Source of the DNA: Pumilibacteraceae bacterium
GTDB lineage: Bacteria > Bacillota > Clostridia > Christensenellales > Pumilibacteraceae
NCBI GenBank assembly: GCA_045532295.1
Contig: JAZSFP010000004.1
Coordinates: 796-24,795, forward strand
Reading direction: 5' to 3'
Length of the DNA stretch: 24,000 nt
The notes under the pieces are model-generated. The model saw only the letters and a list, made by a program, of their open reading frames with translations, was not told the DNA's origin and did no database searches. Both the position numbers and the translations under genes were made by a program. Positions 3,479-20,327 of the stretch are shown in pieces. Every line of letters begins with the position of its first letter. Position 1 is the stretch's first letter.

Positions 3479-3485
3479 ATTATCT

Positions 3486-6196: not shown

Positions 6197-6200
6197 AGTC

Positions 6201-6953: not shown

Positions 6954-8014
6954 TATTTAACCTCCTTCGACATCTTTTCGATGCTTGCAAGCACCTCGTC
7001 GGGCGAGGGCAACATACCACCCGTTCTGCTCGTGAGCCATACGGGGCGTTTGCACTCGGTCGCAAGGCGAATATCTTCAATCATTTGACCCATAGAAAGT
7101 TCTACGGAAATAAAGCCTTTAACCTGCTCTGCGGTCTTTTTCAAAACTTCGGTGGGGAAAGGCCAAAGCGTAATGGGGCGAATAAGTCCCACTTTTACGC
7201 CTTTCTTTCTCGCTGCGGTTACCGCGTTTTTGGAAATTCTTGCCGCGATACCGAACGCTACTACGCAGTACTCCGCGTCGTCCATCATATAACTTTCGTA
7301 TAAAACTTCGTCCTTATGGATTTTAGCGTACTTTTCAAAGCGTTCAATATTCGTCTTTTCCAAAATCTCGGGTTTAAGATAGAGCGAATTGATAATATTA
7401 TGCTTTCTCTCGCCCTTAGTTCCGTTAGCAGCCCAAGGCTTTTCAACGGGCGTAGAATTACTCTCGGGGATAGAAACGGGCTCCATCATTTGTCCCATAG
7501 TTCCGTCTGCAAGTAGCATTACGGGCATACGGTATTTGTCCGCTAAGTCGAACGCCTTAATCGTATAGTCCGCCATCTCTTGAACGGAGGCAGGGGCAAG
7601 CACTATAAGATGATAGTCGCCGTGTCCACCGCCCTTGGTCGCTTGGAAGTAGTCCGACTGCGAGGGCTGAATACCACCAAGACCGGGACCGCCACGCTGA
7701 ACGTTGACGATAAGCGCGGGAAGGTCTGCGCCGGCTATGTAGGAAATACCCTCTTGTTTAAGGGAAATTCCGGGGCTTGAAGAGGAAGTCATTACTCTAA
7801 AGCCTGCGCCTGCAACGCCGTAAACCATATTGATTGCGGAAACTTCGCTCTCAGCCTGCAAGAATACTCCACCGATTTTGGGCATACGCTTAGCCATATA
7901 AGCGGCAATCTCCGTTTGAGGCGTGATGGGATAACCAAAGTAGTGTCTGCAACCTGCTTTAATAGCCGCTTCCGCTATCGCCTCGTTACCTTTCATTAAA
8001 ACTTTTTCAGCCAT
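6953..8014 (-). CDS. 2-oxoacid:ferredoxin oxidoreductase, alpha subunit
   Basis: 353 aa. The N-terminus reads KGNEAIAEAAIKAGCRHYFGYPITPQTEI, followed by the internal motif VQRGGPGLGG, both typical of OFOR alpha subunits. Confidence 0.9.
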   Translation of the reverse strand: MAEKVLMKGNEAIAEAAIKAGCRHYFGYPITPQTEIAAYMAKRMPKIGGVFLQAESEVSAINMVYGVAGAGFRVMTSSSSPGISLKQEGISYIAGADLPALIVNVQRGGPGLGGIQPSQSDYFQATKGGGHGDYHLIVLAPASVQEMADYTIKAFDLADKYRMPVMLLADGTMGQMMEPVSIPESNSTPVEKPWAANGTKGERKHNIINSLYLKPEILEKTNIERFEKYAKIHKDEVLYESYMMDDAEYCVVAFGIAARISKNAVTAARKKGVKVGLIRPITLWPFPTEVLKKTAEQVKGFISVELSMGQMIEDIRLATECKRPVWLTSRTGGMLPSPDEVLASIEKMSKEVK

Positions 8015-8026
8015 AATTCGTTCTCC

Positions 8027-8233
8027 TTATCTTTCCACCGTAATCGCGCAGTCGGGACACATCGTAGCGCAGAAAGCGCAACCGATACACGCCTCTTGGT
8101 TGATAACCTCCGCAGGCGAGTGTCCTTTCGCGTTGAGGACGGTCTTGCTAAGTTCAATAATCTTCTTTGGGCAAGCGTGAACGCAAAGTCCACAACCCTT
8201 GCACACGTTTACTTCAATCGTAACTTTTGCCAT
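8027..8233 (-). CDS. 2-oxoacid:ferredoxin oxidoreductase, delta subunit (2x[4Fe-4S] ferredoxin)
   Basis: 68 aa with two CxxCxxCxxxCP motifs (CKGCGLCVHACP and CIGCAFCATMCP). Confidence 0.9.
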   Translation of the reverse strand: MAKVTIEVNVCKGCGLCVHACPKKIIELSKTVLNAKGHSPAEVINQEACIGCAFCATMCPDCAITVER

Positions 8234-8237
8234 TGTC

Positions 8238-8894
8238 TTACTCCTTAATATCGTAATATTTGCTTTGAAGGACGAGGGGGAACGCTCCCTCCATTTCCAC
8301 GGCAGAAGTCGTGAAAAGCACCTTTAGTCCCGTCAAAGCGGAAAGTCTTTCGCACTCGTCTTTAGTCGCTAAGATATCGTTTGCGGTAGTCTCGTCGCCG
8401 AGGTTAGAGTTGTTGATGATTGCGGTGAACTTGATTTTGCACGCGCTCTCAATCTCACGCATAACCTCGATAGCGTCCTCCGCCGTTCTCGTTAGCGGAC
8501 GATAAAAGTTAGCCACGAAACACATTTCGTAATTGTTTTCTTCTAAAATATAGGGGGTATATCTTCCCAGCGCGTACGCTCCTCTATCGTCGCCACCGAC
8601 GTCAATTATTGCAACCGTATTGCGATTTTGGAACATTGAGTACGCTTCGGGAGGAAGGGAAGGAAGGTCTACGTTAGTGTTAGCGAAAGCAGGAAGAATA
8701 ACTTTTACGCCCTTCTCCACTAACTCTCTTTCGCTATCCGCCGAGCGAAAATAGGGGTTGACGATATCAAGGTCAGCGAGCGTTACCGCTTTCCCCTCGC
8801 CCTTTAGCGCGAGCGCGAGGTTGACCGCAATATTCGTTTTTCCGCTACCGTAATGCCCTGCGATTATATAGACGCGCTTGTCTACGCCTTGCAT
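8238..8894 (-). CDS. P-loop NTPase of the MinD/ParA/CooC-like (SIMIBI) type, function unknown
   Basis: 218 aa with Walker A GHYGSGKT at residues 13-20, then LADLDIVNP and the Walker-B-like AIIDVGGDD. It overlaps the ilvE 3' end by 13 nt, which suggests translational coupling. Confidence 0.7.
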   Translation of the reverse strand: MQGVDKRVYIIAGHYGSGKTNIAVNLALALKGEGKAVTLADLDIVNPYFRSADSERELVEKGVKVILPAFANTNVDLPSLPPEAYSMFQNRNTVAIIDVGGDDRGAYALGRYTPYILEENNYEMCFVANFYRPLTRTAEDAIEVMREIESACKIKFTAIINNSNLGDETTANDILATKDECERLSALTGLKVLFTTSAVEMEGAFPLVLQSKYYDIKE

Positions 8895-9961
8895 ACCTTA
8901 CACATCCAGCCGTGAGTATCCTCTACCTTGCCCCACTGAATACCCGTTAAGTTGTCGTAGAGTTTTTGAGTGAGCGCGCCGATTTCGTTATTCGATACGG
9001 TGTACTCAACGCCGTCGTAGAAGAGTTTGCCGATGGGCGAAACGACTGCCGCCGTTCCCGTTCCCCAAGCCTCTTCAAGTTTGCCTTCTTTTGCCGCGGT
9101 AAAGAGTTCGTCGACGGAGAAAAGGCGTTCTTCAACCTCGTAGCCCCACTCTTTGAGAAGTTCTACGCAAGACTTTCTGGTAATACCGGGAAGAACCGAG
9201 CCGGTGAGCGCAGGCGTGATAATCTTTCCGTCCACTTTGAACATTACGTTCATACTGCCTACTTCTTCGATATACTTTCTGTCTACGCCGTCAAGCCAAA
9301 GAACTTGGGTATAACCGTTCTCTTCCGCTCTCTTGCCTGCTCTAAGGGAGGCTGCGTAGTTACCACCGCACTTAGCGTAACCCGTACCACCGCGAACCGC
9401 TCTGACGTCGCTTTGCTCGATAGCGATTTTAACGGGGTTAATGCCCTCTGCGTAGTACGCGCCAACGGGCGAGCAGATTACCACGAACATAGCCTCGTGT
9501 ACTGCGTGAACGCCAAGGTGTGGGTCGTTACCGTACATATAGGGACGAAGGTAAAGGGAAGTTCCCTCGCTGTGAGGAACCCAGTCCTTTTCCACTTCTA
9601 CGATAGTCTTTAAGATATCAAGGCAAGCCTCTTCGTCGATTTGGGGCAAGCAAAGACGCTCCGCGCTATTGTTGAGACGGCGAATATTCTCTAAAGGACG
9701 GAACATTGCAATCTCGTTTTGGGCAGTTCTATAAGCCTTCATACCCTCGAAAATCTCCGCGCCGTAGTGAAGAACGGTGGACGCTGGATGAACGGGGATA
9801 GGCGCGAAAGGTACGATTTGAGCGTCGTACCAGCCCTTGTCCTCCGACCACTTCATAATAAACATATGGTCGGTAAACACTCTACCAAAACCCAGTTTGC
9901 TCTCGTCTTGAGGTTTTTGCTTGGGACTTGTCGTCTTAGTAATTTTAATATCGAATTTCAT
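8882..9961 (-). CDS. ilvE: Branched-chain-amino-acid aminotransferase (fold-type IV)
   Basis: 359 aa with FEGMKAYR, SLYLRP, GTGYAKCGGNYAASL, LPGITR and GTAAVVSPI. AGAGAGG lies 8 nt upstream of the ATG. Only 29 nt separate it from the upstream ligase gene, and that gap has no hairpin. Confidence 0.9.
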   Translation of the reverse strand: MKFDIKITKTTSPKQKPQDESKLGFGRVFTDHMFIMKWSEDKGWYDAQIVPFAPIPVHPASTVLHYGAEIFEGMKAYRTAQNEIAMFRPLENIRRLNNSAERLCLPQIDEEACLDILKTIVEVEKDWVPHSEGTSLYLRPYMYGNDPHLGVHAVHEAMFVVICSPVGAYYAEGINPVKIAIEQSDVRAVRGGTGYAKCGGNYAASLRAGKRAEENGYTQVLWLDGVDRKYIEEVGSMNVMFKVDGKIITPALTGSVLPGITRKSCVELLKEWGYEVEERLFSVDELFTAAKEGKLEEAWGTGTAAVVSPIGKLFYDGVEYTVSNNEIGALTQKLYDNLTGIQWGKVEDTHGWMCKVCKA

Positions 9962-9990: not shown

Positions 9991-12285
9991 CTATAATTTA
10001 TTTCTTTGGATTTTACCCGAAGTCGTCTTGGGAAGTTCGTCGCGGAATACGACTACTCTGGGGTACTTATAAGGCGCGGTGCGTTCTTTAACGTAGGCTT
10101 GGATTTCCTTTTTGAGTTCTTCCGTGCCCTCCGTTCCCTTAACGAGCACTATGCTCGCCTTAACTACTTGACCGCGAACCTCGTCGGGCTGAGCGGAAAC
10201 GCCACACTCAAGCACGTAGGGAAGTTCCATAATGACGTTCTCGATTTCAAAAGGTCCGATGCGGTAACCAGACGACTTAATAACGTCGTCAACGCGTCCT
10301 ACGTACCAGTAATAGCCGTCCTCGTCGCGCCAAGCGGTGTCGCCCGTATGGTAATATCCGTCGTGCCAACACTCCGCCGTCTTTTCCTCGTCGTCGTAGT
10401 AGCCCACGAACAAGCCGTTGGGTTTGCCGTGCTCGGTCTTGATACAGATTTCGCCCACTTCGCCCACCGCGGTAGGTTTGCCGTCGGCGTCGAGAAGTTT
10501 AATGTCGTATAGGGGTACGGGCTTACCCATTGAGCCAAGGCGCGAGGTCGTGCCTGCAAGGTTAGCAAGCGCAACGGTGGTTTCCGTTTGACCAAAGCCC
10601 TCCATAATCTGAAGTCCCGTTGCCTTTTCAAACTGACGGAAAACTTCGGGGTTGAGCGCCTCGCCGGCAGTTGACATATGCTCGATTGAGGAAAGGTCGA
10701 AGTTGGAAAGGTCTTGCTTTATCATCATTCTAAGCATAGTCGGGGGAGCACAGAAAGTGGTTATATGGTACTTTGCGAACATAGGCATAATGTCGTTTGC
10801 GTCGAAACGGTCAAAGTCGTAAACGAACAGTCCCGCCTCGCAAAGCCATTGTCCGTAAAGTTTACCCCACGCTGCCTTTGCCCAACCCGTGTCGGATATG
10901 GTAAGGTGTAGTCCGTCGGGGTTTACCGAGTGCCAGTACTTTGCGGTTATAAAGTGTCCTAAGGGGTACTTGTAGTTGTGCATAGCAATCTTGGGATTGC
11001 CGGTAGTACCCGAGGTAAAGTACATAAGCATTATATCGTCTCCGCAAGGAGCGTCCTCGCCTCTTTCAAGTTTGCCCGTATAGAGCGTATACTCTTCGTC
11101 GAAGGTTCTCCAGCCCTCACGCTTGCCGTTGACCATAATGATATGCTCGAGCGAGGGAGCGTTCTCTTTTGCCTTTTCCACCTCGAAAGACACTTCGCCG
11201 TCAGCGGTACAAAGGATTGCTTTTACGCCCGCTTTGTTAAGACGGTAAGTAATATCGTGCTCTTTAAGTTGGTTGGTAGCGGGGATTGCGATTGCGCCGA
11301 TCTTGTGAAGAGCGACCATAGCGAACCAGAACTGATAGTGGCGTTTGAGGATAAGCATTACCCTATCGCCTTTCTTAATTCCAAGCGCCTTGAAGTAGTT
11401 TGCGCACTGGTTAGAGGCGCGTTTAAGGTCGTGGAAAGTAATTCTTCGCTCCGTTTTGTCGTTCGATATATGCATAAGCGCGGTCTTGTCGGGGTCTTTG
11501 TCCGCAATAGCGTCCACCACGTCAAAGCCGAAGTTAAAGGTATCGTCGTTTCTAAAGGATATGGAAGTAGGTACTCCTCTCCCGTCCTCGGTAGTCGTGA
11601 TATACTTTTCCCAAACGCGTTTTCCCTCGTCCTTTTTCTTGGGAGGCGCGAACACCACGTCGGGCTCGTTGATTTTTGCGTGGGTAATGGTAGAAACGGA
11701 CTCGCGAGCAGGGTTAAGAACGAACGCGTAGAACACGCAGTCTGCGTTGTCCACCGCTATCATACCGTGAGGAACGGAACTGTCGTAGTAAATGCTGTCG
11801 CCCTCGCGGAGAATTTCGATATGATTTCCTACCTGTACTTTTAACGCGCCCGATACTACCACGTCGCACTCTTGTCCTTCGTGCGAGGTTAGTTCTATGG
11901 GCTTATTTTGTTGGAGAGGGTCGTACGAGGACACTACGAACAACGGCTCGGCAATTCTGTTCTTAAAGGCGGAGGCGAGGTTATAGTAAACCATACCGTG
12001 AGCCTTTTGAATTTCTTGACCTTCGCCCTTTCGCGTTACCGTGTATCCTGCAAGTCGAGGACCGCTACCGTCGATAATTTCGGTTACGTCAACCTTTAAA
12101 GCGGCTGCGCAACGGTACAAAAAGGCAAAGTTAAGGTCGCTACTACCGTTCTCGCAAGAGGCGTACTCTTCTTCGCTTACGCCCGTCTTTTGCGCCATTT
12201 CTTCAATCGAAAGTCCTTCGATTTCACGCAAAGTGCGAATACGCTGTGCCATCTCCATTATTTTGCTTTCTAAACTGTTAAACAT
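9991..12285 (-). CDS. Fusion protein: XRE-type HTH + cupin + AMP-forming acyl-CoA synthetase (medium-chain/ACSM-like), paralog 1 (Val T-box controlled)
   Basis: 764 aa counted from ATG 12285 (AGGAG 6 nt upstream); the track's extra 14 codons lie in the leader. The HTH is RIRTLREIEGLSIEEMAQKTGVSEEEYASCENG. The cupin is HEGQECDVVVSGALKVQVGNHIEILREGDSIYYDSSVPHGM. Ligase motifs are FTSGTTGNPK, SDTGW, GFGQTET, YHTGD, SSGYRIGPFEIE and PKTTSGKIQR. Confidence 0.85.
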   Translation of the reverse strand: MFNSLESKIMEMAQRIRTLREIEGLSIEEMAQKTGVSEEEYASCENGSSDLNFAFLYRCAAALKVDVTEIIDGSGPRLAGYTVTRKGEGQEIQKAHGMVYYNLASAFKNRIAEPLFVVSSYDPLQQNKPIELTSHEGQECDVVVSGALKVQVGNHIEILREGDSIYYDSSVPHGMIAVDNADCVFYAFVLNPARESVSTITHAKINEPDVVFAPPKKKDEGKRVWEKYITTTEDGRGVPTSISFRNDDTFNFGFDVVDAIADKDPDKTALMHISNDKTERRITFHDLKRASNQCANYFKALGIKKGDRVMLILKRHYQFWFAMVALHKIGAIAIPATNQLKEHDITYRLNKAGVKAILCTADGEVSFEVEKAKENAPSLEHIIMVNGKREGWRTFDEEYTLYTGKLERGEDAPCGDDIMLMYFTSGTTGNPKIAMHNYKYPLGHFITAKYWHSVNPDGLHLTISDTGWAKAAWGKLYGQWLCEAGLFVYDFDRFDANDIMPMFAKYHITTFCAPPTMLRMMIKQDLSNFDLSSIEHMSTAGEALNPEVFRQFEKATGLQIMEGFGQTETTVALANLAGTTSRLGSMGKPVPLYDIKLLDADGKPTAVGEVGEICIKTEHGKPNGLFVGYYDDEEKTAECWHDGYYHTGDTAWRDEDGYYWYVGRVDDVIKSSGYRIGPFEIENVIMELPYVLECGVSAQPDEVRGQVVKASIVLVKGTEGTEELKKEIQAYVKERTAPYKYPRVVVFRDELPKTTSGKIQRNKL

Positions 12286-12353
12286 AATTACTCCTATAAG
12301 TAAGCGAATAATAAGGCTATCGTTCAATAGACATAGGCTATGGAACAGAGCCT

Positions 12354-12626
12354 ACAAAAAACGCTCGTCTCAAAAAATCATCTTTGAGACGAGCATACTT
12401 TTCCGTATTACCCGCGGTACCACTCAAATTGCGCAAGCGCGCCACCTCAGGCTCAAACAAGCCGTAGACTTTTACGCAGTCGTCACGGGAAGGTTCTAAT
12501 AGGGCGAGCGCCCGTTCTTCCTTCCGACTCGGAAGTTACAGTTCTTTTCTCACTTTAACGGTTCACACCTTCGTCCGTCTCTCTGAAAAGTTACCCAAAA
12601 AGAACACTCTTCGTCACAGTCTTTAC
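12354..12626 (-). promoter_or_regulatory. T-box riboswitch leader, specifier GUA (Val)
   Basis: Read on the minus strand. GA/K-turn: GACT-GTGAC-GAAG pairs with CTTC-CGA-GTC. AG bay: AGAGAG. Distal stem ACGG/CCGT has a loop containing GGTGTGA. Specifier loop: GAAC-U-GUA-A-CUUC, with the codon at the complement of 12537-12539. T-box motif: AATTTGAGTGGTACCGCGGG (complement of 12411-12430). Terminator: GCTCGTCTCAA/TTGAGACGAGC (12363-12394) plus GTTTTTTGT. TTTGAG of the T-box can pair with CTCAAA of the terminator 5' arm to form the antiterminator. Confidence 0.9.
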
Positions 12627-12632
12627 GGGGCA

Positions 12633-12661
12633 ATTATACCATTTTTAATATGGTTTGTCAA
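12633..12661 (-). promoter_or_regulatory. Consensus SigA-type promoter of the Val T-box unit
   Basis: Minus strand: TTGACA (12661-12656), a 17 nt spacer, then TATAAT (12638-12633) preceded by TGg (extended -10). It starts 45 nt downstream of the paralog-2 stop codon. Confidence 0.85.
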
Positions 12662-12706: not shown

Positions 12707-14974
12707 TTATAATTTATTTCTTTGGATTTTACCCGAGATAGTCTTGGGCAGTTCGTCGCGGAAGACTACGATACGGGGGTACTTATAGGGCGCGGTATGG
12801 GACTTAACGTAGGCTTGGATTTCCTTTTTAAGTTCTTCCGTTCCCACCGTTCCTTTGGTTAAAACTACGCTCGCCTTAACTACCTGACCACGAATATCGT
12901 CGGGCTCGGGGGACACGGCGCACTCAAGCACGTAGGGAAGTTCCATAATAACGCTCTCGATTTCAAAAGGTCCGATGCGGTAGCCAGACGACTTGATAAC
13001 GTCGTCTTTACGGCTAACGTACCAAAAATATCCGTCCTCGTCGCGCCAAGCGGTGTCGCCCGTGTGGTAAACGCCGTCGTGCCAAGCGTCAGCGGTAAGG
13101 TCTTCCGCTCTGTAATATTCCTTGAAAAGTCCACAGGGAACGGACTCGTCGGTATGGATAACGATTTCGCCCGTCTCACCGTTGGGAAGAGAATTGCCCT
13201 CGTCGTCCACGATATCCACTCTGTACTGGGGCGACGCTTTACCCATCGAGCCGATTTTGGGCGTCGTTCCGCGGAGGTTACAGATAGTAAGCGTGGTTTC
13301 CGTTTGGCCAAAGCCCTCCATAATCTTAAGCCCCGTAGCGTGCTCGAACTGACGGTAAACCTCGGGGTTGAGCGCCTCGCCTGCCGTGGTCATATGATGA
13401 ACGGAGGAAAAATCGTACTTTCCAAGGTCGCTCTTTATGAACATTCTGAGCATAGTTGGGGGAGCGCAGAAGGTCGTGATTTGGTACTTTGCGAACATAG
13501 GAAGGATTTCCTCTGCCTTGAAGACGTCGAAGTCGTAAACGAACACCGCGCCTTCGCAAAGCCATTGACCGTACAGTTTGCCCCAGAGCGATTTGCCCCA
13601 GCCCGTATCGGAAATGGTAAAGTGTAGTCCGTCGCGCTCGCAGTTATGCCAGTATTTAGCGGTAACGTAATGTCCAAGCGCGTAGGTGTGCTTGTGAGCC
13701 GCCATTTTAGGATTGCCCGTCGTTCCAGAAGTGAAGAACATAAGCGCGGTATCCTCGCCGGCAGAGGCGTTCTCTGCGCGGTCGAACTTGCTCGAAAAAC
13801 GCGTGTACTCTTCGTTAAAGTTATGCCAGCCCTCTTTTTCGCCGTTGACGAGCAACTTAACTTCCACGGAAGGACAGTTCTTCGACGCGCGCTCGGCAAT
13901 GTCGGAAACGTCGCCGTCGGCAGTACAAACGATAGCCTTTACGCTCGCTGCGTTAAAGCGGTATTCAAAGTCGTGCTCTTTGAGTTGGTTGGTAGCAGGG
14001 ATTGCGACCGCGCCGATTTTATGAAGAGCGACCATAGCGAACCAGAACTGATAATGGCGTTTAAGCACGAGCATTACCTTATCCCCTCTCTTAATTCCAA
14101 GCGAGAGGAAGTAGTTCGCGCACTGGTTAGAGGCTTTTTTGATATCCTTAAAGGTAAATCTGCGCTCCGTTAAATCACGGCTTATATGGAGCATAGCAAG
14201 TTTATCGGGGTACTTATTCGCAATCTCGTCCACAACGTCAAAGCCGAAGTTAAAGGTGTCGGTATTCTTGAACTTAATGTCGGTAAGAGTGCCGTTCTCG
14301 TCCTCGGTGGTCTCGACGAACTTCTCGCAAATAAGTTCCTCGGACTCCTGATGCGCCACTACGCTCTTTCTTACTACCTCTTCCTTGGTGTCCTCGCCGG
14401 GAAGAACTACCGCGCAGAACACGCAGTCGCGTCCGCCGATTGCTATCATACCGTGAGGGGTGGACGAATTATAGTAAATGCTGTCGCCCTCGTTAAGAAT
14501 TTCCGTATGCTCGCCGATTTGTACTTTAAGCGAACCCTCTAAAACGAGGTCGAACTCTTGACCGCCGTGGGTGGTAAGGTGGATAGGCTTATTCTGTTGC
14601 GACGCAGAATACTCGTATCTTACCCAGTAAGGCTGAGCAATTTTATCGCGGAACTTGGGCGCAAGGTTCTTAATGTCGATGCCCTCTTCTTTAGCCGTCG
14701 ACTGTCCCTGTCCCTTTCTCGTTACCGTATAAGAAGATAGGTTCGCAGCGTTACCTTCAAGAAGTTCGGTAAGTTCTACGCCGAAAACTAACGCGCATTT
14801 ATGAATAAATGAAAAGGGAATATCTATTCGACCAGACTCGTATTTAATGTAATCGCTCTCGCTAACTTCAGCGCGATTTGCCATTTCCGATACCGAAAAT
14901 CCCATTACGTTACGCATTTCTTTGATACGCTGGGCAACTTCCGTCAGTCTGTTCATAGTGTTCTTGTCTTCCAT
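12707..14974 (-). CDS. Fusion protein: XRE-type HTH + cupin + AMP-forming acyl-CoA synthetase, paralog 2 (Ile T-box controlled)
   Basis: 755 aa counted from ATG 14974 (AAGGAG 9 nt upstream). The track's extra 43 codons run through the T-box terminator. The architecture and motifs match paralog 1 (FTSGTTGNPK, SDTGW, GFGQTET, YHTGD, SSGYRIGPFEIE, PKTISGKIQR), and both share the C-terminal end SGKIQRNKL. Confidence 0.85.
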   Translation of the reverse strand: MEDKNTMNRLTEVAQRIKEMRNVMGFSVSEMANRAEVSESDYIKYESGRIDIPFSFIHKCALVFGVELTELLEGNAANLSSYTVTRKGQGQSTAKEEGIDIKNLAPKFRDKIAQPYWVRYEYSASQQNKPIHLTTHGGQEFDLVLEGSLKVQIGEHTEILNEGDSIYYNSSTPHGMIAIGGRDCVFCAVVLPGEDTKEEVVRKSVVAHQESEELICEKFVETTEDENGTLTDIKFKNTDTFNFGFDVVDEIANKYPDKLAMLHISRDLTERRFTFKDIKKASNQCANYFLSLGIKRGDKVMLVLKRHYQFWFAMVALHKIGAVAIPATNQLKEHDFEYRFNAASVKAIVCTADGDVSDIAERASKNCPSVEVKLLVNGEKEGWHNFNEEYTRFSSKFDRAENASAGEDTALMFFTSGTTGNPKMAAHKHTYALGHYVTAKYWHNCERDGLHFTISDTGWGKSLWGKLYGQWLCEGAVFVYDFDVFKAEEILPMFAKYQITTFCAPPTMLRMFIKSDLGKYDFSSVHHMTTAGEALNPEVYRQFEHATGLKIMEGFGQTETTLTICNLRGTTPKIGSMGKASPQYRVDIVDDEGNSLPNGETGEIVIHTDESVPCGLFKEYYRAEDLTADAWHDGVYHTGDTAWRDEDGYFWYVSRKDDVIKSSGYRIGPFEIESVIMELPYVLECAVSPEPDDIRGQVVKASVVLTKGTVGTEELKKEIQAYVKSHTAPYKYPRIVVFRDELPKTISGKIQRNKL

Positions 14975-15042: not shown

Positions 15043-15315
15043 CTAAAAAACCCATCTCAATGATTCTAACATTGAGACGGGTTAAAATAACTCGCGGTAC
15101 CACTCAACTTGCATAAAAAATTATGCCACTTATCAGGTTCAAACAAACCCTACGCACTAACGCAGCGGACTCGGAAAGCGCCTACTAAAGCAATCGCTCT
15201 TTGGGGCTTTCGGCTCGGAAGTGATAGGTCTTGCGGACTCTTCGTTTATCGGTTCTCAGCAACCCGACTCTCTGGAAAACTATTTATCCAACCGTCTTCG
15301 TCACAGCCTTTATAT
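15043..15315 (-). promoter_or_regulatory. T-box riboswitch leader, specifier AUC (Ile)
   Basis: Read on the minus strand. GA/K-turn: GGCT-GTGAC-GAAG pairs with CTTC-CGA-GCC. AG bay: AGAGAG. Distal stem TCGG/CCGA has a loop containing GCTGAGA. Specifier loop: GACC-U-AUC-A-CUUC, with the codon at the complement of 15223-15225. T-box motif: AAGTTGAGTGGTACCGCGAG (complement of 15091-15110). Terminator: ACCCGTCTCAATG/CATTGAGATGGGT (15050-15082) plus TTTTTTAGG. Confidence 0.9.
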
Positions 15316-15321
15316 GCGCCT

Positions 15322-15350
15322 ATTATAGCACTACGCTTTTTCTTTGTCAA
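15322..15350 (-). promoter_or_regulatory. Consensus SigA-type promoter of the Ile T-box unit
   Basis: Minus strand: TTGACA (15350-15345), a 17 nt spacer, then TATAAT (15327-15322) preceded by TGc. It begins 30 nt after the amidohydrolase stop. Confidence 0.85.
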
Positions 15351-15379: not shown

Positions 15380-16174
15380 TTACAAGTTTTTCAAGTTAAA
15401 TACCCTTATTGCGTTCTTGTAAAAAATCTGCTCTCTCTCCTCTTCGGTTAAGCCCAAAGCGTTAAAGCGCGCCATTTCCTCGTCAATCTTCCACATAGGA
15501 AAATCGGTAGCGAAAAGCACTCTTTGTGCGCCGTACTTTCTTATAACGGCGGTAGCGGTTTGAGGGGAAATCATTGCAAGCGAACTTGAACAATCCACGA
15601 AAACCTGCTTATAGGGCGCAAGTTTTTCCACCGCCTCTTCCCAAACGGAATATCCGCCGAGGTGCGCGGCAATTACCGTAAGATTTGGGAAACGCTCCAA
15701 AACGCTTATGAGGTTTTCGGGGTTAGAATAATTGTAACGGCTATCGCCTGCGTGGATAAGCAAGGGAATTTTGCCCTCGATTGCGCGGTAAATCTTGTCG
15801 CATCGTGGGTCGTCAAGCGCGATTGCTTGAATATCGGGGTGGAGTTTTACGCCGTGAAGATTGAGCGATATAATCTCTTCCACTTCGCTTTCCACCTCTT
15901 CGCTATCGGGGTGGAGCGTTCCAAGTCCGATAAAGCGGTCGGGACGGCTTTTAACCATATCCGCAATAAAGTGGTTTATGGATCGGACTTGCGAGGGCTT
16001 AGTTGCAACGGAGAAAATAACGGAGTGCGTTACGCCGTTCTTCTCACTCTCGCTTATAAGCGTTTCCACTCGTCCGTCGTAGTCCATCGGGATAGAATAG
16101 AACTTGCCTATGCTCTCCACTGCTTTTTCAACGATTTTCTCGGGGTAAATATGGCAATGACAGTCGATAATCAT
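15380..16174 (-). CDS. TIM-barrel metal-dependent hydrolase (amidohydrolase-2 / COG2159-like)
   Basis: 264 aa with N-terminal IIDCHCH (HxH metal motif), later HLGG and FATDFP. It is the last gene of the Leu T-box unit, starting 4 nt after the upstream stop. Confidence 0.7.
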   Translation of the reverse strand: MIIDCHCHIYPEKIVEKAVESIGKFYSIPMDYDGRVETLISESEKNGVTHSVIFSVATKPSQVRSINHFIADMVKSRPDRFIGLGTLHPDSEEVESEVEEIISLNLHGVKLHPDIQAIALDDPRCDKIYRAIEGKIPLLIHAGDSRYNYSNPENLISVLERFPNLTVIAAHLGGYSVWEEAVEKLAPYKQVFVDCSSSLAMISPQTATAVIRKYGAQRVLFATDFPMWKIDEEMARFNALGLTEEEREQIFYKNAIRVFNLKNL

Positions 16175-16177
16175 ACC

Positions 16178-18631
16178 TTACCCCTTTATGCCGAGCATTT
16201 CCACGCTCTGCTCTTTCATCTTATATTTAAGAATTTTGCCCGCAGCGTTCATCGGGAATTCTTTGACGAACACGAAGTAACGGGGTACTTTGTGTTTAGC
16301 CATATTAGCGTTACCGTACTCGCGCATTTCCGCCTCGTCCGCCGTTTCGCCTTTTTTAAGGATTATCCAAGCGCAACATTCTTCGCCGTATCTCTCGTCG
16401 GGAACGCCCACTACTTGCACGTCGCGAACTTTTTGGTGAGTAAGATAGAACTCTTCAATCTCGCGAGGATAGAGGTTTTCGCCACCGCGAATAATCATAT
16501 CTTTAAGTCTGCCCGTAACCTTATAGTATCCGTCCGCAGTTTTGCAACAGATATCTCCGCTATGGAGCCAGCCTTCTCTATCAATCGCCTCGCTGGTTGC
16601 TTTGGGCATTTTGTAATAGCCTTTCATTATATTATAACCGCGCGCAACGAACTCGCCGTTCTCACCGTCGGGAACTTCCTCGCCCGTTTCGGGGACGATA
16701 ACCTTACACTCAACGCCGGGGAAAGCCGAGCCTACCGTTTCCACTCTATGCTCTTCGTCCTCGTTGACTTCGCCCATAGTGCACCCGGGGCTTGCCTCGG
16801 TCTGACCGTAAACGCTGATTATCTCGCGCATATTCATTTCCGCCGACGCTCTGCGCATAAGGTCTGCCGGACAGTTCGCCCCTGCCATTATTCCCGTTCG
16901 CATATACGAAAAGTCCGTTTTAGCAAAGTCGGGGTGGTTGAACATAGCGATAAACATCGTGGGAACGCCGTTAAAGGCGGTAATATGCTCGTCGTTTACG
17001 CAAGCAAGCGAACTTTTTGGCGAGAAGTAGGGCATAGGACACATAGTTACGCCGTGCGTCATACTGTTCGTCATTGAAAGCACCATACCAAAGCAATGGA
17101 ACATAGGTACTTGTATCATCATTCTGTCCGCCGTGGACATATCCATTCTGTCGCCTATGATTTTACCGTTGTTGACGATATTGCGATGAGTGAGCATTAC
17201 GCCTTTAGGAAAGCCCGTAGTACCCGAAGTGTACTGCATATTGCACACGTCGTCGGGGCGAACGAGCGCGGCGCGTCTTCTAACCTCTTCGTCAGGAACG
17301 AGAACGCTCCTCTTCATAAAGTCTTCCCACTCTAAGCATCCGTCCATATTAAAGCCTACCGTTATTACGTTGCGAAGGAAAGGCAAGGTCTTTGAGTAAA
17401 GGGGCTGGGCGGGGGTTAAATTTTTAAGTTCGGGACAAAGTTCTTCGATTATTTCTTTATAGTTACTGTCCTTGCAACTGTCAATCATAACGAGCGTATG
17501 CGTGTCGGACTGACGGAGGAGGTACTCTGCCTCGTGGATTTTATAAGCGGTATTAACCGTAACGAGAACCGCGCCGATTTTTACCGTCGCCCAGAAGGTA
17601 AGATACCACTGAGGAATATTCGTCGCCCAAATTGCCACGTGGTGTCCGGGGCGCACGCCAAGGGATATAAGTGAGGCGGCTACTTTATCCACTTCGTCAC
17701 GGAATTCGCGATAGGTACGCGTATAATCGTGCGTGGTATACTTAAAAGCGTACTGGTCGGGATAATGCTCTACCATAGTGTCGAGAACCTCGGAAAAGGT
17801 AAGGTCGAGAACTTCGTACTTTTTCCAAGGGTGCGTTCCGCTCTTATCTCTATTATAGAAAATTTCCTTGGGTTTTGCGCTCGCCCGTTCAATCGAACTC
17901 ATAAAACTTTCAAAGTGCGTGAGCAAAATATCGGGGTTAGTAACCTCGCCGGCGGAAAGCGCGCAGATATAACCGTCGTAGTTAAGGGAACGGAGCGCGC
18001 TTATAAACTCGCCTACGGGCAGTTCGCCCTCGCCCATAAGCGTGTCTTCGCCATCAAGCATATCGCCGATTTTAACGTACTCAATGTACGCGCCCAAAGT
18101 CTGAATAGTGCGGTCGGCAGTCTCTTTCGCTCTAAAGAAGGTCTCGCGGATATTCCAGCACACCTTTACCGACGCCGAGCCCAGCATACCTATAACGCCC
18201 AAGATTTTCTCAGTGTGAGCAAGCGCGTTCGCCGTCTCTATTAAAATATCAACGCCGTACTCTTCCGCCGTCTTTATTACAGGGGTAAAGATTTCCTTGA
18301 TTTTTTCCTCCGTAATTTCGCCAAAGGTAACCACGACGCCCGGAGCAGTTACGCGTCCTGCTTGCTTAATCGTTTCGATAATATCCTGAGGGTTGGTGTT
18401 TTGGTCGATAATCTTGGGATAGCCCACTACCGCTATGGCAATTCTGCGGTTGATAAGTTTGCGCTTTTGGTCAACGGTAAGTTCCTCGCGGAAAATACTG
18501 TCCGCGTGCGCGCTAATCTGTTCTTCTATCGACGATATTTCAAAGCCCGAAAACCCGTAATGCGCCGTAGCGGTGCAAAGTTCAAGGAAACTTTTAGTGG
18601 GTACGAGCGAAGTAGAAAATGCAAGTTTCAT
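16178..18631 (-). CDS. Fusion protein: xylose-isomerase-like TIM barrel (N-terminal ~250 aa) + AMP-dependent acyl-CoA ligase (FadD/ACSF2-like)
   Basis: 817 aa. The N-terminal part (GFSGFEIS...VVVTFG...DILIETAN...VCWNIRETF...YVKIGD...GELPVGEFISALRSLNYDGYI) looks like the AP-endonuclease-2/xylose-isomerase fold. The C-terminal part has YTSGTTGFPKGVMLTH, YGQTE, LHSGD, RGGENLYPREIE and AAGKILK. The 471-aa plus-strand ORF at 15662-17077 is an antisense shadow. Confidence 0.8.
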   Translation of the reverse strand: MKLAFSTSLVPTKSFLELCTATAHYGFSGFEISSIEEQISAHADSIFREELTVDQKRKLINRRIAIAVVGYPKIIDQNTNPQDIIETIKQAGRVTAPGVVVTFGEITEEKIKEIFTPVIKTAEEYGVDILIETANALAHTEKILGVIGMLGSASVKVCWNIRETFFRAKETADRTIQTLGAYIEYVKIGDMLDGEDTLMGEGELPVGEFISALRSLNYDGYICALSAGEVTNPDILLTHFESFMSSIERASAKPKEIFYNRDKSGTHPWKKYEVLDLTFSEVLDTMVEHYPDQYAFKYTTHDYTRTYREFRDEVDKVAASLISLGVRPGHHVAIWATNIPQWYLTFWATVKIGAVLVTVNTAYKIHEAEYLLRQSDTHTLVMIDSCKDSNYKEIIEELCPELKNLTPAQPLYSKTLPFLRNVITVGFNMDGCLEWEDFMKRSVLVPDEEVRRRAALVRPDDVCNMQYTSGTTGFPKGVMLTHRNIVNNGKIIGDRMDMSTADRMMIQVPMFHCFGMVLSMTNSMTHGVTMCPMPYFSPKSSLACVNDEHITAFNGVPTMFIAMFNHPDFAKTDFSYMRTGIMAGANCPADLMRRASAEMNMREIISVYGQTEASPGCTMGEVNEDEEHRVETVGSAFPGVECKVIVPETGEEVPDGENGEFVARGYNIMKGYYKMPKATSEAIDREGWLHSGDICCKTADGYYKVTGRLKDMIIRGGENLYPREIEEFYLTHQKVRDVQVVGVPDERYGEECCAWIILKKGETADEAEMREYGNANMAKHKVPRYFVFVKEFPMNAAGKILKYKMKEQSVEMLGIKG

Positions 18632-18633
18632 AG

Positions 18634-19992
18634 TTATTTTTCCTCGTGTACGATTTTGTTAAGGGCGTTTACGTACGCGCGAACGCACGCTCCGATAATG
18701 TCGGTTGAAACGCCGTTGCCGGGGTAAAGTTTTCCGTTAGCGCGAAGTCTAATGATGGCCGAGCCTACCGCCTCTCTGCCTTTCGTGATTGCGGAAATGC
18801 GGAAGTCGTCAAGTTCGTAATGGTGTCCTACGACCTGCTCAATTGCGTGGAACACCGCGTCGATAGGACCGTCGCCCGTGCTTACTCCGCTAAAACGCTC
18901 GCCGTTCTTCTCAAGCGTTACGTTCGCAGTCGCCGAAATTATGCTACCGCTGTTTACAACGTAACTAACGAGGTGATAGGTAGAAGGCGCTTGCATAGCG
19001 GTGGAGGCGATTACTGCCTCAAGTTCACGCTTGTCAACCGACTTTTTGCGAACGGTAAGACGCTTAAATTCGTCGTAAACCTTGCCCGTGTCCTCGTCCG
19101 TAAGTTCGTATCCAAGCGATTTTATTACCGCGCTAACCTCAGAAAGCGTGCTTGAAGAGGAAAGTTTAACCGTCTTTTCCTCCTCCTCGCTCTCTTTTTC
19201 CGTTACCGCGCTTGCTTGCTCGCTAATGTTTTTAATGGAAGTGATATCAATGTTTGCGCTCGCGTTGAGCGTACCGCCCTTTGCTCTAATAACCTCGGCA
19301 AAAACCGCTGGGCGAAGGAACGCTCCGCTAATGGAAGTTACCACACCGTCCGCGCCACTCTCAATAGCCTTAATAGCGTTCGCGCTCGCTAAAGAAAGAG
19401 CGTCCGAGGGACAAGCAATGACGGAAATTTTCGATACCGTATTGATTTTTTCGAGCATTTTTGCGTAATCTTCGGGAAAAGCCTCGCCTGCCTCGTCGTA
19501 AATAATTACTCCGCTTGCGCCCTTCTCTTCTACCGCTTTAACGCACTTTTCGATAAAGCCTTCCTCCGCTCTAAAAGCGTCGGTGAGCATAACGAAAACC
19601 TCACTACATTTTGCTTTTGCGCACTCGGTAAGCAACGCTATTTTTTCAAGCATAGCCGAGGCTTTAAGATGATATTTGTACTCCATAGTCGCAGTGGAAA
19701 CGGGCATAGACACTACGAGCGCAGGGGCAACCGCTCCCTTAACGCAAGCATAGGCGCGCTCTATTCCCTTTTCGCTATCGCCTACCTCTACGGCAACTTT
19801 TGCGTTTTTAACGGACTCAGCGAGCGTTTTGTAGATTACTTCGCTCTCTTTACTAACGCCGGGGAAAGGCAAATAAATAATATCCACTCCGCTCTTGTCA
19901 AGTAGCGCGCATAGGTTTAGTCTTTCACGGAAGGTAAAGTTTTCCTTCTCAATGGTCTTGAGCGTTGCGTCTATAGTAATGATTTTTTTCAT
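18634..19992 (-). CDS. 2-isopropylmalate-synthase-like protein (DRE-TIM barrel + LeuA C-terminal regulatory domain) with non-canonical active-site residues
   Basis: 452 aa with AGGAGG 9 nt upstream of the ATG. It is collinear with LeuA, but IDATLKTIEKE replaces FDTTLRDGEQ and SVIACPSDALSLASANAIKAIESGA replaces [23 protein letters not shown]. The C-terminus (GVSTGDGPIDAVFHAIE...ISAITKGREAVGSAIIRL...GNGVSTDIIGACVRAYVNALNK) matches the LeuA dimerisation and Leu-binding domain pattern. Confidence 0.75.
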   Translation of the reverse strand: MKKIITIDATLKTIEKENFTFRERLNLCALLDKSGVDIIYLPFPGVSKESEVIYKTLAESVKNAKVAVEVGDSEKGIERAYACVKGAVAPALVVSMPVSTATMEYKYHLKASAMLEKIALLTECAKAKCSEVFVMLTDAFRAEEGFIEKCVKAVEEKGASGVIIYDEAGEAFPEDYAKMLEKINTVSKISVIACPSDALSLASANAIKAIESGADGVVTSISGAFLRPAVFAEVIRAKGGTLNASANIDITSIKNISEQASAVTEKESEEEEKTVKLSSSSTLSEVSAVIKSLGYELTDEDTGKVYDEFKRLTVRKKSVDKRELEAVIASTAMQAPSTYHLVSYVVNSGSIISATANVTLEKNGERFSGVSTGDGPIDAVFHAIEQVVGHHYELDDFRISAITKGREAVGSAIIRLRANGKLYPGNGVSTDIIGACVRAYVNALNKIVHEEK

Positions 19993-20019: not shown

Positions 20020-20292
20020 ATAAACAAAACCCGCAGATGAGAAGATTTCCTTCTCTTCTGCGGGATGATTACAAAGAACCACGGTACCACCCGTCATTGC
20101 CGTAAAATACGACCTCTTATAGAACTCCAACAAGTCCGTTCGCTATAACGGGCGCGCCCGTAATTCCTTACTATAAGTTCCGGAATTCCGCTCCGATACG
20201 AGACTGCTATCCCGTCCGCCCGTTATCTCGCACCAACCGATAACTCTCTGAAGGGTTTTTGACGACACGCATAATATCTTCACAGCGTTTAT
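20020..20292 (-). promoter_or_regulatory. T-box riboswitch leader, specifier CUC (Leu)
   Basis: Read on the minus strand. GA/K-turn: CGCT-GTGAA-GATA pairs with TATC-GGA-GCG. AG bay: AGAGAG. Distal stem TTATC/GATAA has a loop containing GGTGCGA. Specifier loop: GCAG-U-CUC-G-UAUC, with the codon at the complement of 20200-20202. T-box motif: AATGACGGGTGGTACCGTGG (complement of 20079-20098). Terminator: CCCGCAGAAGAGAAG/CTTCTCATCTGCGGG (20030-20064, one mismatch) plus TTTTGTTTAT. Confidence 0.9.
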
Positions 20293-20298: not shown

Positions 20299-20327
20299 AT
20301 ATTATCATTTTTGAAAAAATATGTCAA
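20299..20327 (-). promoter_or_regulatory. SigA-type promoter of the Leu T-box unit
   Basis: Minus strand: TTGACA (20327-20322), a 17 nt spacer, then TAATAT (20304-20299). Confidence 0.75.

Follow-up and report, generated by a model that had tools for sequence, protein, structure and literature searches.

A LeuA-derived pseudoenzyme as a possible leucine-sensing partner of an acyl-CoA ligase in gut and rumen Clostridia

Rumen and gut anaerobes need isovalerate, 2-methylbutyrate and isobutyrate, which they reductively carboxylate to leucine, isoleucine and valine, as has been known since the 1960s; in our literature searches no paper turned up that identifies the activating ligases of this route from branched-chain fatty acids (BCFA) to branched-chain amino acids (BCAA), or that describes how these ligases are regulated. 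Sensing of an amino acid by a dedicated protein or domain is familiar from other pathways: HisZ, a catalytically dead HisRS paralogue, is the allosteric histidine-sensing subunit of the short-form ATP phosphoribosyltransferase, and LeuA_dimer domains bind leucine in LeuA and isoleucine in CimA. In acetohydroxyacid synthase, an enzyme at the entry of a BCAA pathway, the regulatory domain that binds BCAA is found on a polypeptide of its own, the small subunit IlvH/IlvN (IlvH is described as a regulatory subunit in PMC13381585). Methylthioalkylmalate synthase and the plant enzymes derived from 2-isopropylmalate synthase (IPMS), such as 6E1J, descended from IPMS by module loss, having lost the regulatory domain and kept catalysis.

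The window analysed here, by which we mean the whole 24,000-nucleotide stretch of Pumilibacteraceae DNA, holds three promoter/T-box units (Leu, Ile and Val) with one acyl-CoA ligase each, beside a 2-oxoacid:ferredoxin oxidoreductase (VOR) and a branched-chain aminotransferase. Our main finding concerns the Leu unit, where a 452-aa LeuA-like pseudoenzyme is encoded at 18634..19992 on the minus strand, from an ATG start preceded by an AGGAGG ribosome-binding site. Like type I LeuA, this protein has an HMGL-like TIM barrel, the helices of accessory subdomain II and a LeuA_dimer domain with its G-[DN]-G-P loop and hydrophobic pocket, and, as in leuA and ilv-leu operons, a Leu-specific T-box lies upstream of the gene. 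Unlike LeuA, it is without the metal ligands, the DRE residues, the GIGER loop and subdomain I, is about 50 aa shorter, has a regulatory domain more conserved than its barrel, and is encoded with an acyl-CoA ligase, not with leuBCD. The likeness to HisZ is one of concept, a pseudoenzyme paralogue from an amino-acid pathway kept as the sensing subunit of the first committed enzyme of the route; the folds, however, are unrelated, the partner here is an ANL-family ligase, and regulation by HisZ has been shown experimentally whereas that by the LeuA-like protein is our proposal. IlvH and IlvN differ in having an ACT-type fold, not LeuA_dimer, and no origin from a catalytic paralogue, while methylthioalkylmalate synthase, although 6E1J is the top Foldseek match, is the mirror image of the LeuA-like family.

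Solved LeuA references are the barrels 3EWB, 3RMJ and 3EEG and the full-length M. tuberculosis (Mt) enzyme (1SR9, 3FIG). Pfam matched the HMGL-like model PF00682 at residues 15-224 (81 bits, E=1.1e-22) and the LeuA_dimer model PF08502 at residues 319-447 (18652..19038, minus strand; 104.9 bits against a gathering score of 24.9, E=3.8e-30), the latter over model positions 2-130 of 131. From alignments, AF2, Foldseek and dN/dS, residues 1-262 (19207..19992, minus strand) form a degenerate DRE-TIM (HMGL-like) barrel: the AF2 model has a mean pLDDT of 90.5, with the barrel mostly above 90, and Foldseek superposes it on 3EWB with a TM of 0.92 and an rmsd of 1.6 Å, so that the HMGL-like (beta/alpha)8 fold is retained. 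The sole stretch of low pLDDT is an acidic low-complexity linker at aa ~262-286 (19135..19206, minus strand), which replaces accessory subdomain I; the deletion spans ~42 residues and appears both as a gap in the LeuA alignment and as unmatched positions 277-324 of the NF002086 model.

In phmmer alignments to 3EWB and 3RMJ, the RDGEQ position reads K12-T-I-E-K16, (P/C)EDA(T/L)R reads L-T137-D-A-F-R141, PDTVGY reads Y165-D-E-A-G-E, and HCH reads C194-P-S196, both metal His being gone. Hence T13, C194 and S196 stand where an active DRE-TIM metallolyase has the Asp of RDGEQ and HxH, while K12 and T137, the latter in place of the EDA Glu, stand at the Arg and Glu positions R80 and E218 (Mt numbering). 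The GIGER(A)GN loop carries a five-residue deletion relative to canonical LeuA. The activity of Mt IPMS is destroyed by each of R80K, R80A and E218A (PMC10464499), and IPMS cannot catalyse its reaction without the accessory domain (PMC9860122). Every element needed for the Claisen condensation has been lost, that is the DRE residues, both metal His, the GIGER loop and subdomain I; on the best reading, the protein is a pseudoenzyme that evolved from the 2-isopropylmalate synthase of bacteria.

A first-pass annotation had described the protein as collinear with IPMS, with RDGEQ replaced by KTIEK, HxH by CxS, PDTVGY by YDEAGE and CEDAGR by LTDAFR, with a well-preserved C-terminal LeuA_dimer domain and with an adjacent 817-aa ligase fusion. 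The replaced motifs were recovered in the phmmer alignments to 3EWB and 3RMJ, the preserved domain in the Pfam match, and the fusion gene indeed lies downstream. The HMM search which that annotation had proposed matched HMGL-like and LeuA_dimer, and the NCBIfam models for LeuA, CimA and NifV all scored far under their cut-offs (best 231.7 bits vs 532). The GIGER loop loss, the deletion of subdomain I, the T-boxes, the BCFA-to-BCAA cluster and the ligase fusions that lack a partner were observed beyond it.

The LeuA-like family is large, with ~106 clusters at 50% identity, and its members come from gut and rumen Clostridia; we found no curated model for it and, in literature searches on the family or the operon, no paper. 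None of the 106 representatives has His at the first metal-His position, most have Ser at the second, and just 25 keep Glu at the E218-equivalent. Seven residues occur at the H285-equivalent (E, Q, C, S, R, A or K), as they do at the D81-equivalent (E, Q, N, K, D, S or T). The losses do not stem from faulty sequencing, since they recur in 106 family clusters and the ORF is under purifying selection. A leuA pseudogene in decay, or an artefact of annotation, would account for the loss of all catalytic motifs, and we give this reading practically no credence: it is refuted by the breadth of the family, more than 100 clusters at 50% identity and at least 80 species genomes having an intact ORF of 450-490 aa, and by dN/dS, which is well below 1 in both domains (0.05-0.13 in the barrel; 0.006-0.04 in the regulatory domain). 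A ribosome-binding site, a promoter and a T-box of its own also accompany the gene. The low dN/dS, together with the confidently modelled, LeuA-matching fold, suggests that the protein is still functional.

The two domains have been conserved to different degrees, with a mean pairwise identity of 0.69 for the regulatory domain vs 0.39 for the barrel and a higher value for the regulatory domain in all 3160 pairs compared; six longer representatives of the LeuA type, by contrast, show about equal conservation of both domains. Even so, about a dozen barrel residues are near-invariant (D8, T10, F21, P97, S99, E104, Y105, K110, D138, R141, D166), and these, with the purifying selection, indicate that the barrel still does something. 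That something could be an altered, metal-independent chemistry, maybe with the acyl-adenylate or acyl-CoA product of the ligase as substrate, and a barrel that is under purifying selection, is confidently modelled and keeps a few near-invariant residues is what an active enzyme would show. We nevertheless hold this to be very unlikely: the former active-site positions vary from member to member, and among the 106 representatives no new set of conserved polar residues takes their place; the cap over the active site, subdomain I, without which IPMS has no activity, is deleted; no part of the protein is less conserved than the barrel; and the pathway inferred for the cluster requires no additional step.

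The conservation of the regulatory domain extends to its ligand pocket. A phmmer search of the PDB with the C-terminal 175 aa matched subdomain II only, and a 20-sequence profile was needed to reach 3F6G and 1SR9. For the leucine pocket of the Mt enzyme we used what we take to be the residue list of Koon et al. 2004 and Zhang et al. 2009, the letters of which agree with the aligned PDB sequences (1SR9). The corresponding residues of the LeuA-like protein are G373, D374, G375, P376, I377, D378, L394, F397, A401, A408 and I432, which include both the G-x-G-P loop and the hydrophobic positions of a LeuA_dimer domain. Over the 106 representatives, the equivalents of Mt G531, G533, P534, L535, V551, Y554, A565 and I627 are 85-100% conserved, the N532-equivalent is 81% Asp, and the A558-equivalent (A401) is Ala or Ser. 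At the selectivity positions the protein has the LeuA-like I377, A401 and I432, where the isoleucine-specific CimA has Y, I and Q, and the pocket positions agree with the canonical LeuA representatives in the set, not with CimA. The regulatory domain is thus, as far as its residues tell, an intact putative leucine-binding domain.

Two nucleotides after the LeuA-like stop codon begins the gene for the 817-aa TIM-barrel/acyl-CoA-ligase fusion (16178..18631, minus strand), which has a xylose-isomerase-like TIM barrel at its N-terminus (aa 1-265), with N160, K187 and L225 at the putative metal positions in the window copy, and an AMP-forming acyl-CoA ligase at its C-terminus (aa ~270-817). The final gene of the Leu unit encodes a 264-aa protein assigned to Amidohydro_2 by Pfam (15380..16174, minus strand), which is present in 36 of 82 related loci. 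The genomic context is drawn from 20-kb homologous loci, of which roughly 140 were collected, no contig having been found that encodes the exact window protein. The fusion follows the LeuA-like gene in 78/78 loci, directly downstream on the same strand in 77 of them, with a median gap of 6 bp, the lone exception being a frameshifted copy; from this arrangement the LeuA-like gene is predicted to be translationally coupled to the fusion. The ligase part is 66-87% identical across the species carrying both genes. The substrate of this ligase gets no pointer from its PDB matches, which are generic ANL enzymes only; against the curated NCBIfam models it scores under every cut-off, and a word-indexed search with the fusion TIM domain brought back, besides a single weak outsider, only pieces of these fusions, giving no functional lead.

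Such strict adjacency and coupling would also be expected of a structural partner that senses nothing, a scaffold, assembly factor or channel that stabilizes the ligase fusion or links it to VOR, with the regulatory domain serving as a dimerization or docking surface only. Both TIM barrels, that of the LeuA-like protein and that of the fusion, are fast-evolving while conservation is high in the regulatory and ligase domains, a pattern compatible with a conserved interface, and the catalytic-site residues of the fusion TIM domain are degenerate mainly where the LeuA-like partner is present; in the fusions without the partner, this TIM domain retains a complete E-D-H-H-H-D-E set. Docking alone, however, needs no amino-acid pocket, and here the pocket, including the G-D-G-P loop, is near-invariant and unchanged from canonical LeuA. 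In addition, 20 of the 66 fusions found in metagenomes, forming one clade that is still under a Leu T-box (CUC), are without the partner, which makes the LeuA-like protein dispensable for ligase function. We therefore consider a purely structural role unlikely. The same 20 partner-less fusions rule out that the LeuA-like protein is an obligate catalytic subunit of the ligase.

The Leu unit is preceded by a sigma-70-type promoter (20299..20327, minus strand; TTGACA-17-TAATAT with an extended TG) and by a T-box leader (20058..20292, minus strand) that matches Rfam RF00230 with 111.1 bits, above the gathering score of 93. The specifier loop of this leader carries CUC (Leu) followed by G, the T-box sequence is GGGUGGUACCG with its UGGN, and a terminator hairpin, CCCGCAGA...TCTGCGGG, is followed by a TTTTGTTT tract (20022..20064, minus strand); the terminator was read directly from the sequence, having been missed by a simple terminator scanner. 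CTC is invariant in a 12-sequence Stem I alignment (A3), and CUC is found in 12 of 12 Rfam-detected relatives. Among related leaders obtained as profile hits the specifier is CTC/CTG in 60 of 61, a count to be read knowing that the nhmmer specifier column misread ATC-A leaders as CTC and that the specifier regex is noisy where loop spacing differs; non-Leu specifiers rest on cmscan alignments and on regex matches with 4/4 helix pairs. About one fifth of the loci have no T-box upstream of the LeuA-like gene, and Rfam in E-value mode detected no RNA element in seven such loci. A survey found that, in every case verified by experiment, the specifier of the T-box agreed with what the downstream gene does (PMC2494555). 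We predict that the LeuA-like/ligase operon, of which the LeuA-like gene is the first, is switched on by a Leu-specific T-box.

The other two units are built in the same way, and they and the genes that follow them all lie on the minus strand. In the Ile unit, a consensus sigma-70 promoter (15322..15350) precedes a T-box leader (15070..15313; terminator 15083-15049) with the specifier AUC (Ile) followed by A, which scores 86.7 bits in Rfam (E=7.6e-18), below the gathering score of 93, and then a gene for an HTH_19, Cupin_2 and MbcS-like short-chain acyl-CoA ligase protein (12707..14974; the likely start is M44 of the listed ORF). In the Val unit, a consensus sigma-70 promoter (12633..12661) is followed by a leader (12382..12626; terminator 12396-12361) with the specifier GUA (Val) then A, at 75.4 bits (E=6.3e-15), also below gathering, a matching GUA leader being present at the homologous position in three loci (L024, L065, L073), and by the gene for a second HTH_19, Cupin_2 and MbcS-like acyl-CoA ligase protein (9991..12327). 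Downstream are genes for a branched-chain amino acid aminotransferase (8882..9961; NF009897, 481 bits vs a cut-off of 307), a CbiA/ParA-like P-loop protein conserved beside VOR (8238..8894), a 68-aa 2x[4Fe-4S] ferredoxin resembling VOR delta (8027..8233), with a Fer4 gene at the same place in another locus (L001), and the 2-oxoisovalerate-type VOR itself (5666..8014), made up of alpha (VorB, 6953-8014), beta (6201-6953) and gamma (5666-6196). VorB scores 567 bits against NF005507 (cut-off 399), and VOR TIGR02175 gives 84.2 bits vs 81.1.

MbcS is the best NCBIfam match of the two neighbouring ligases, at ~440 bits, which is under the cut-off of 850, and they differ from it in their N-terminal HTH and cupin module and in that they appear to feed amino-acid, not fatty-acid, synthesis. 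S. aureus MbcS uses 2-methylbutyrate and isobutyrate, and isovalerate poorly (PMC10026030), a preference that matches the Ile and Val T-boxes. The fusion ligase falls into another subfamily, with PRK12583 as the nearest model. Most likely, the cluster converts isovalerate, 2-methylbutyrate and isobutyrate to leucine, isoleucine and valine, which would proceed by CoA activation, reductive carboxylation and transamination.

The presence of VOR and the aminotransferase raises the question of what is sensed and on whose behalf. The ligand might be 2-oxoisocaproate, isovalerate, isovaleryl-CoA, isoleucine or valine in place of leucine, and the target VOR, the aminotransferase or gene expression in place of the ligase. 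In favour of such a sensor, the VOR and aminotransferase genes directly follow in the same operon in several loci, the difference between LeuA and CimA means that the specificity of a LeuA_dimer domain can shift, and the barrel retains the substrate-region motifs DAxR and D-x-x-G. Another ligand or another target is, in our estimation, quite unlikely, given that the selectivity positions are those of LeuA and not of CimA, that the Leu T-box fits leucine, and that the ligase is the only invariant neighbour, VOR and the aminotransferase often being elsewhere.

Taking into consideration that a dead LeuA copy with an intact putative leucine domain is found next to a ligase and under a Leu T-box, the LeuA-like protein is a probable leucine sensor of that ligase. 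The first-pass annotation had seen in the protein either a leucine-sensing pseudoenzyme that works with the neighbouring ligase or an enzyme of altered chemistry; every computational line, from the lost catalysis and the kept pocket to the ligase adjacency and the Leu T-box, favours the former, and it is from these lines that we infer the mechanism. The fusion ligase would be the isovalerate-activating entry enzyme of the leucine branch, and the LeuA-like protein would dimerize via its regulatory domains, where free leucine would bind; the signal would be passed to the ligase, halting the ATP-costly activation when leucine is sufficient. Control would then have two layers, with the T-box sensing uncharged tRNA-Leu at the level of transcription and the LeuA-derived subunit sensing free leucine at the level of enzyme activity. 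That the pseudoenzyme gives the isovalerate-activating ligase leucine feedback control has, in our judgement, an even chance of being right. Slightly short of even is the fuller proposal that it is an in-trans leucine-sensing allosteric subunit of an isovalerate-CoA ligase, which would make it the first LeuA regulatory domain to control a non-homologous enzyme and would define the genes and the two-layer control of the reductive-carboxylation route from BCFA to leucine, isoleucine and valine in gut and rumen Clostridia, a route long known though poorly defined in genetic terms.

LeuA-like proteins of this family match LeuA models at 1e-40 to 1e-69, yet far under the cut-offs, and such matches ought not to be taken for evidence of a de novo leucine pathway. 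The locus itself is a complete and testable gene set, with one ligase per amino acid behind the matching T-box and a shared VOR and aminotransferase. If the proposed role is true, the LeuA-like protein would be a new example of a pseudoenzyme as an allosteric module and a natural stand-alone leucine-binding LeuA domain, useful for biosensors. It would also be a marker of 'isoacid'-dependent amino-acid synthesis in Christensenellaceae, Oscillospiraceae, Acutalibacteraceae, Ruminococcaceae and Lachnospiraceae, relevant to isoacid feeding of ruminants and to the balance of BCAA and BCFA in the gut.

The LeuA-like gene (18634-19992, minus strand) has an ATG start with an AGGAGG ribosome-binding site and encodes 452 amino acids, in which Pfam places an HMGL-like barrel at residues 15-224 (E=1.1e-22) and a full-length LeuA_dimer domain at residues 319-447 (E=3.8e-30). 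The NCBIfam LeuA equivalogs matched the protein at 1e-49 to 1e-69, each over two separate stretches and all far under their cut-offs (best score 232 bits, cut-off 532), and none of the NCBIfam curated models was at or above cut-off. The first-pass annotation had described the replacement of four LeuA motifs, and phmmer alignments to the solved barrels 3EWB and 3RMJ bear it out in each case: RDGEQ is KTIEK, (P/C)EDAxR is LTDAFR, PDTVGY is YDEAGE and HCH is CPS. Two further losses, absent from that annotation, emerged when the protein was aligned with canonical LeuA-type representatives: it has lost the GIGER(A)GN loop that follows strand 8, and accessory subdomain I (~42 residues) is missing, an acidic low-complexity linker standing in its place. 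This linker is the sole low-confidence stretch of the AlphaFold model (mean pLDDT 90.5), in which the barrel fits that of Listeria LeuA with a TM of 0.92 and an rmsd of 1.6 A; the model also retrieved full-length M. tuberculosis LeuA (E ~2e-20). These results confirm the earlier observation of a LeuA-like protein that lacks the canonical metal site. It has fold and descent in common with LeuA; however, it lacks four of the defining catalytic features and falls below the curated score cut-offs, and classing it as an isopropylmalate synthase (IPMS) would therefore be wrong.

An exhaustive representative search recovered ~110 full-length clusters at 50% identity, of 450-490 aa and 32-55% identical to the query, which rank above the first canonical LeuA-type proteins (~500 aa, E ~1e-47). 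A word-indexed search found more than 120 closer clusters, with source records unnamed or labelled 'hypothetical protein'. Among 106 representatives, the first metal-histidine position is His in none (E, Q, C, S, R, A or K instead), Ser predominates at the second, the region of the metal Asp is variable and unalignable, and the E218 equivalent is Glu in 25 only. LeuA structural motifs are kept in the barrel (D8, T10, P97, S99, E104, Y105, K110, D138-A-x-R141 and D166-x-x-G169). In M. tuberculosis IPMS, R80K, R80A and E218A each destroy activity on their own (PMC10464499), and IPMS catalysis requires the accessory domain (PMC9860122); from this it is close to certain that the family has lost Claisen-condensation activity. 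For IPMS chemistry, the LeuA-like protein is a pseudoenzyme. Whether it could be an enzyme with new chemistry was also considered; where the active site used to be, the 106 representatives show no new set of conserved polar residues, and we regard this as improbable. Despite the motif losses the protein is under strong purifying selection, with dN/dS of 0.05-0.13 in the barrel and 0.006-0.04 in the regulatory domain, and the idea that the gene is a pseudogene is hardly credible. Partial degeneration was observed elsewhere too: four LeuA-type representatives of ~500 aa (P0256, P0260, P0263 and P0268) keep subdomain I and have partly degenerate catalytic motifs (DSTLCEGER with HSQ, RDGAES, RDGGRA, RDGVFS with CCR), and LeuA may have degenerated on more than one occasion.

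In 3160/3160 pairs from 80 orthologues, conservation is higher in the regulatory domain than in the barrel (mean identity 0.69 vs 0.39); in six longer LeuA-type representatives, a small control set chosen by similarity to the query, the two are about equally conserved (0.32-0.47). The LeuA regulatory domain is intact and unusually constrained. With a profile of this C-terminal domain, alignments were obtained to 3F6G, the regulatory domain of CimA with isoleucine bound (E=5e-9), and to the M. tuberculosis LeuA structures 1SR9 and 3FIG. The ligand contacts, which we take to be G531, N532, G533, P534, L535, A536, V551, Y554, A558, A565 and I627 in M. tuberculosis LeuA and Y430, D431, L451, Y454, I458, T464, V468, P493 and Q495 in L. 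interrogans CimA, agree in residue letter with the aligned PDB sequences at every position. In the LeuA-like protein the putative pocket comprises G373, D374, G375, P376, I377, D378, L394, F397, A401, A408 and I432; these positions are mostly 85-100% conserved in the family (D374 is Asp in 81%, A401 is Ala or Ser) and carry the same residues as the canonical LeuA representatives of the set. Where CimA departs (Y430, I458, Q495), the family is LeuA-like, with I, A/S and I. Since the pocket positions are near-invariant and LeuA-like, the regulatory domain looks to hold an intact amino-acid site of the leucine type. A sensor with a different ligand or target is unlikely.

In 83 loci from species-representative genomes, the LeuA-like gene is followed on the same strand by an 812-844-aa fusion of a xylose-isomerase-like TIM barrel with an AMP-forming acyl-CoA ligase (817 aa in the window, 16178-18631, minus strand), at a median gap of 6 bp (2 nt in the window). 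The arrangement is found in 77 of the 78 loci with room downstream, the exception (L030) being a frameshifted copy. The MAGs are labelled Christensenellaceae, Acutalibacteraceae, Oscillospiraceae, Ruminococcaceae, Lachnospiraceae, Monoglobales and others, and the samples are mostly ruminant, hindgut and human gut. Identity to the window copies is 66-87% in the ligase part, 38-63% in the LeuA-like protein and 25-58% in the fused TIM domain. In this lineage the operon partnership with the ligase is obligatory. Full pairs in bins labelled Coriobacteriaceae (L036), Synergistaceae (L068) and Eggerthellaceae (L078) could reflect horizontal transfer or mis-binning.

Immediately upstream of the LeuA-like gene lies a Leu T-box leader (20058-20292, minus strand; Rfam, 111 bits vs a gathering score of 93), with a near-consensus promoter before it, a terminator hairpin with T-tract after it and, in the cmscan alignment, the specifier CUC then G, i.e. 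leucine. Two leaders detected at a relaxed threshold, Ile (15070-15313, minus strand; E=8e-18, AUC-A) and Val (12382-12626, minus strand; E=6e-15, GUA-A), stand before the first and second HTH-cupin-MbcS-like ligases respectively, each with a perfect TTGACA-17-TATAAT sigma-70 promoter and a terminator. The second of these ligases is followed by an aminotransferase, a CbiA-like protein, a ferredoxin and a 2-oxoisovalerate-type 2-oxoacid:ferredoxin oxidoreductase (VOR). The window cluster has one acyl-CoA ligase behind a T-box per branched-chain amino acid, a pattern repeated in other genomes; the Val leader (GUA) is at the corresponding place in L024, L044, L065 and L073, and the Ile leader (AUC-A) also occurs in L036, L043, L064, L066 and L078. 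An Rfam-level T-box precedes the LeuA-like gene in 11/17 short loci, CTC is invariant in a 12-sequence Stem I alignment of Leu leaders, and a profile search found the leader in 61 loci, of which 59 read CTC and one CTG. In the survey of Wels et al., specifier and gene function agreed in all experimentally verified cases (PMC2494555). In L001 and L005 a complete Leu T-box lies ~480-560 nt upstream of the LeuA-like gene and is followed, in a tandem arrangement, by another promoter and a T-box-like antiterminator/terminator copy; no Stem I was seen by eye in this copy. L025, L033, L037, L049, L031 and L082 have no T-box upstream of the gene. The first four have in common a short leader and, upstream of the promoter, a conserved AAAGTTGTTGCAGTATACGATTTT box; a leader ORF is present in L031 (Leu-rich, MIRKLALLLLALLSLYLYTGSVSRGIH) and in L082 (Ile-rich, MRHAFDELHIIIGNAIIILPLIIIR...). 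Such elements could serve as alternative attenuators or regulator sites.

In a reciprocal test, metagenome contigs were scanned with the N-terminus of the ligase fusion, which yielded 66 fusions whose upstream sequence extends for at least 1.5 kb. The LeuA-like gene was directly upstream in 46 and absent in 20, which form one clade of stand-alone TIM-ligase fusions of ~850 aa (L122-L159, e.g. L137 3980-6532) from digester and bioreactor samples, with a median TIM identity of 0.73. Of the 19 tabulated (L142 excluded), none had a VOR, aminotransferase or amidohydrolase gene within 4 kb. T-box leaders preceded 7/7 of those scanned (Rfam, 71-96 bits), and the specifier was CUC in the four alignments in which it was read. 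As partner-less fusions still stand behind CUC T-boxes, the ligase fusion is a leucine-regulon gene in its own right, and the LeuA-like protein is an accessory inserted between leader and ligase by one large lineage. The 20 partner-less fusions argue against the LeuA-like protein as an obligate catalytic subunit of the ligase and for a modulatory one.

The fused TIM domain (17837-18631, minus strand) has putative metal/catalytic residues E132, D160, H162, H163, H187, D190 and E225, which are conserved in 20/20 partner-less fusions, a single clade, and degenerate in most partnered ones, in a comparison that included loci L084-L163. The partnered fusions keep the E-D-H-E set in only 44/122; D160 is N in 59/118, H187 is R in 38 and E225 is lost in more than half. 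The window fusion has N160, K187 and L225. A non-sensing scaffold is the foremost alternative role for the LeuA-like protein, itself unlikely.

Frequent further neighbours are an Amidohydro_2 protein, one or two HTH-cupin-MbcS-like ligases, a CbiA-like P-loop protein, a small ferredoxin, a three-subunit 2-oxoacid:ferredoxin oxidoreductase and a class IV aminotransferase. Among the window's copies, the alpha subunit of the oxidoreductase scores above the VorB model cut-off (567 bits vs 399) and the aminotransferase above that of the branched-chain aminotransferase equivalog (481 bits vs 307). The two MbcS-like ligases (12707-14974 and 9991-12327, minus strand) carry an N-terminal XRE-type DNA-binding domain (HTH_19) and a small-molecule-binding cupin (Cupin_2), an unusual regulator-enzyme fusion that might play, in the Ile and Val branches, the part proposed for the LeuA-like sensor in the Leu branch. 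The Amidohydro_2 protein (15380-16174, minus strand), encoded by the last gene of the Leu unit, belongs to PF04909, a family of metal-dependent hydrolases and decarboxylases; its gene is near the ligase in 36/82 loci, upstream or downstream, and it is assigned no step in the inferred branched-chain amino acid pathway. The CbiA/ParA-like P-loop protein (8238-8894, minus strand), with a conserved place between aminotransferase or ligase and the ferredoxin/VOR genes and no NCBIfam match, may be an Fe-S maturation factor for VOR. Just past the VOR genes, on the opposite strand, are a RimK-like ATP-grasp ligase (3450-4355, plus strand) and a stand-alone xylose-isomerase-like TIM barrel (4419-5225, plus strand).

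The LeuA-like gene is predicted to be under Leu-T-box control, in a cluster with the genes for three acyl-CoA ligases, VOR and a branched-chain aminotransferase. We propose that this cluster would follow the classical rumen route, from branched-chain fatty acid to acyl-CoA, by reductive carboxylation to 2-oxoacid and on to amino acid; the AMP-forming ligases and starvation-induced leaders argue for the anabolic direction. The fusion ligase would activate isovalerate; this acid is activated very poorly by S. aureus MbcS, which does act on 2-methylbutyrate and isobutyrate (PMC10026030), and that difference would explain a ligase of another subfamily in the leucine branch. The LeuA-like protein would bind free leucine in its regulatory-domain dimer and, when leucine-bound, restrain the ligase, giving the entry step of an ATP-costly route an end-product feedback like that of LeuA on the de novo route. 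We give this proposal, pathway, substrate and leucine-binding restraint together, an even chance.

For the proposed role, the nearest functional analogue is HisZ, the histidine-sensing subunit of ATP phosphoribosyltransferase and itself a dead paralogue of an aminoacyl-tRNA synthetase, and the IlvH/IlvN regulatory subunits are a further one; methylthioalkylmalate synthase is the mirror image, still catalytic but without the regulatory domain, which it has lost. Literature searches, including 'pseudoenzyme' with 'isopropylmalate synthase', found no description of the family or operon; the protein family is undescribed, yet assembled from known domains. The gene cluster around the LeuA-like protein makes an old physiological question directly testable.
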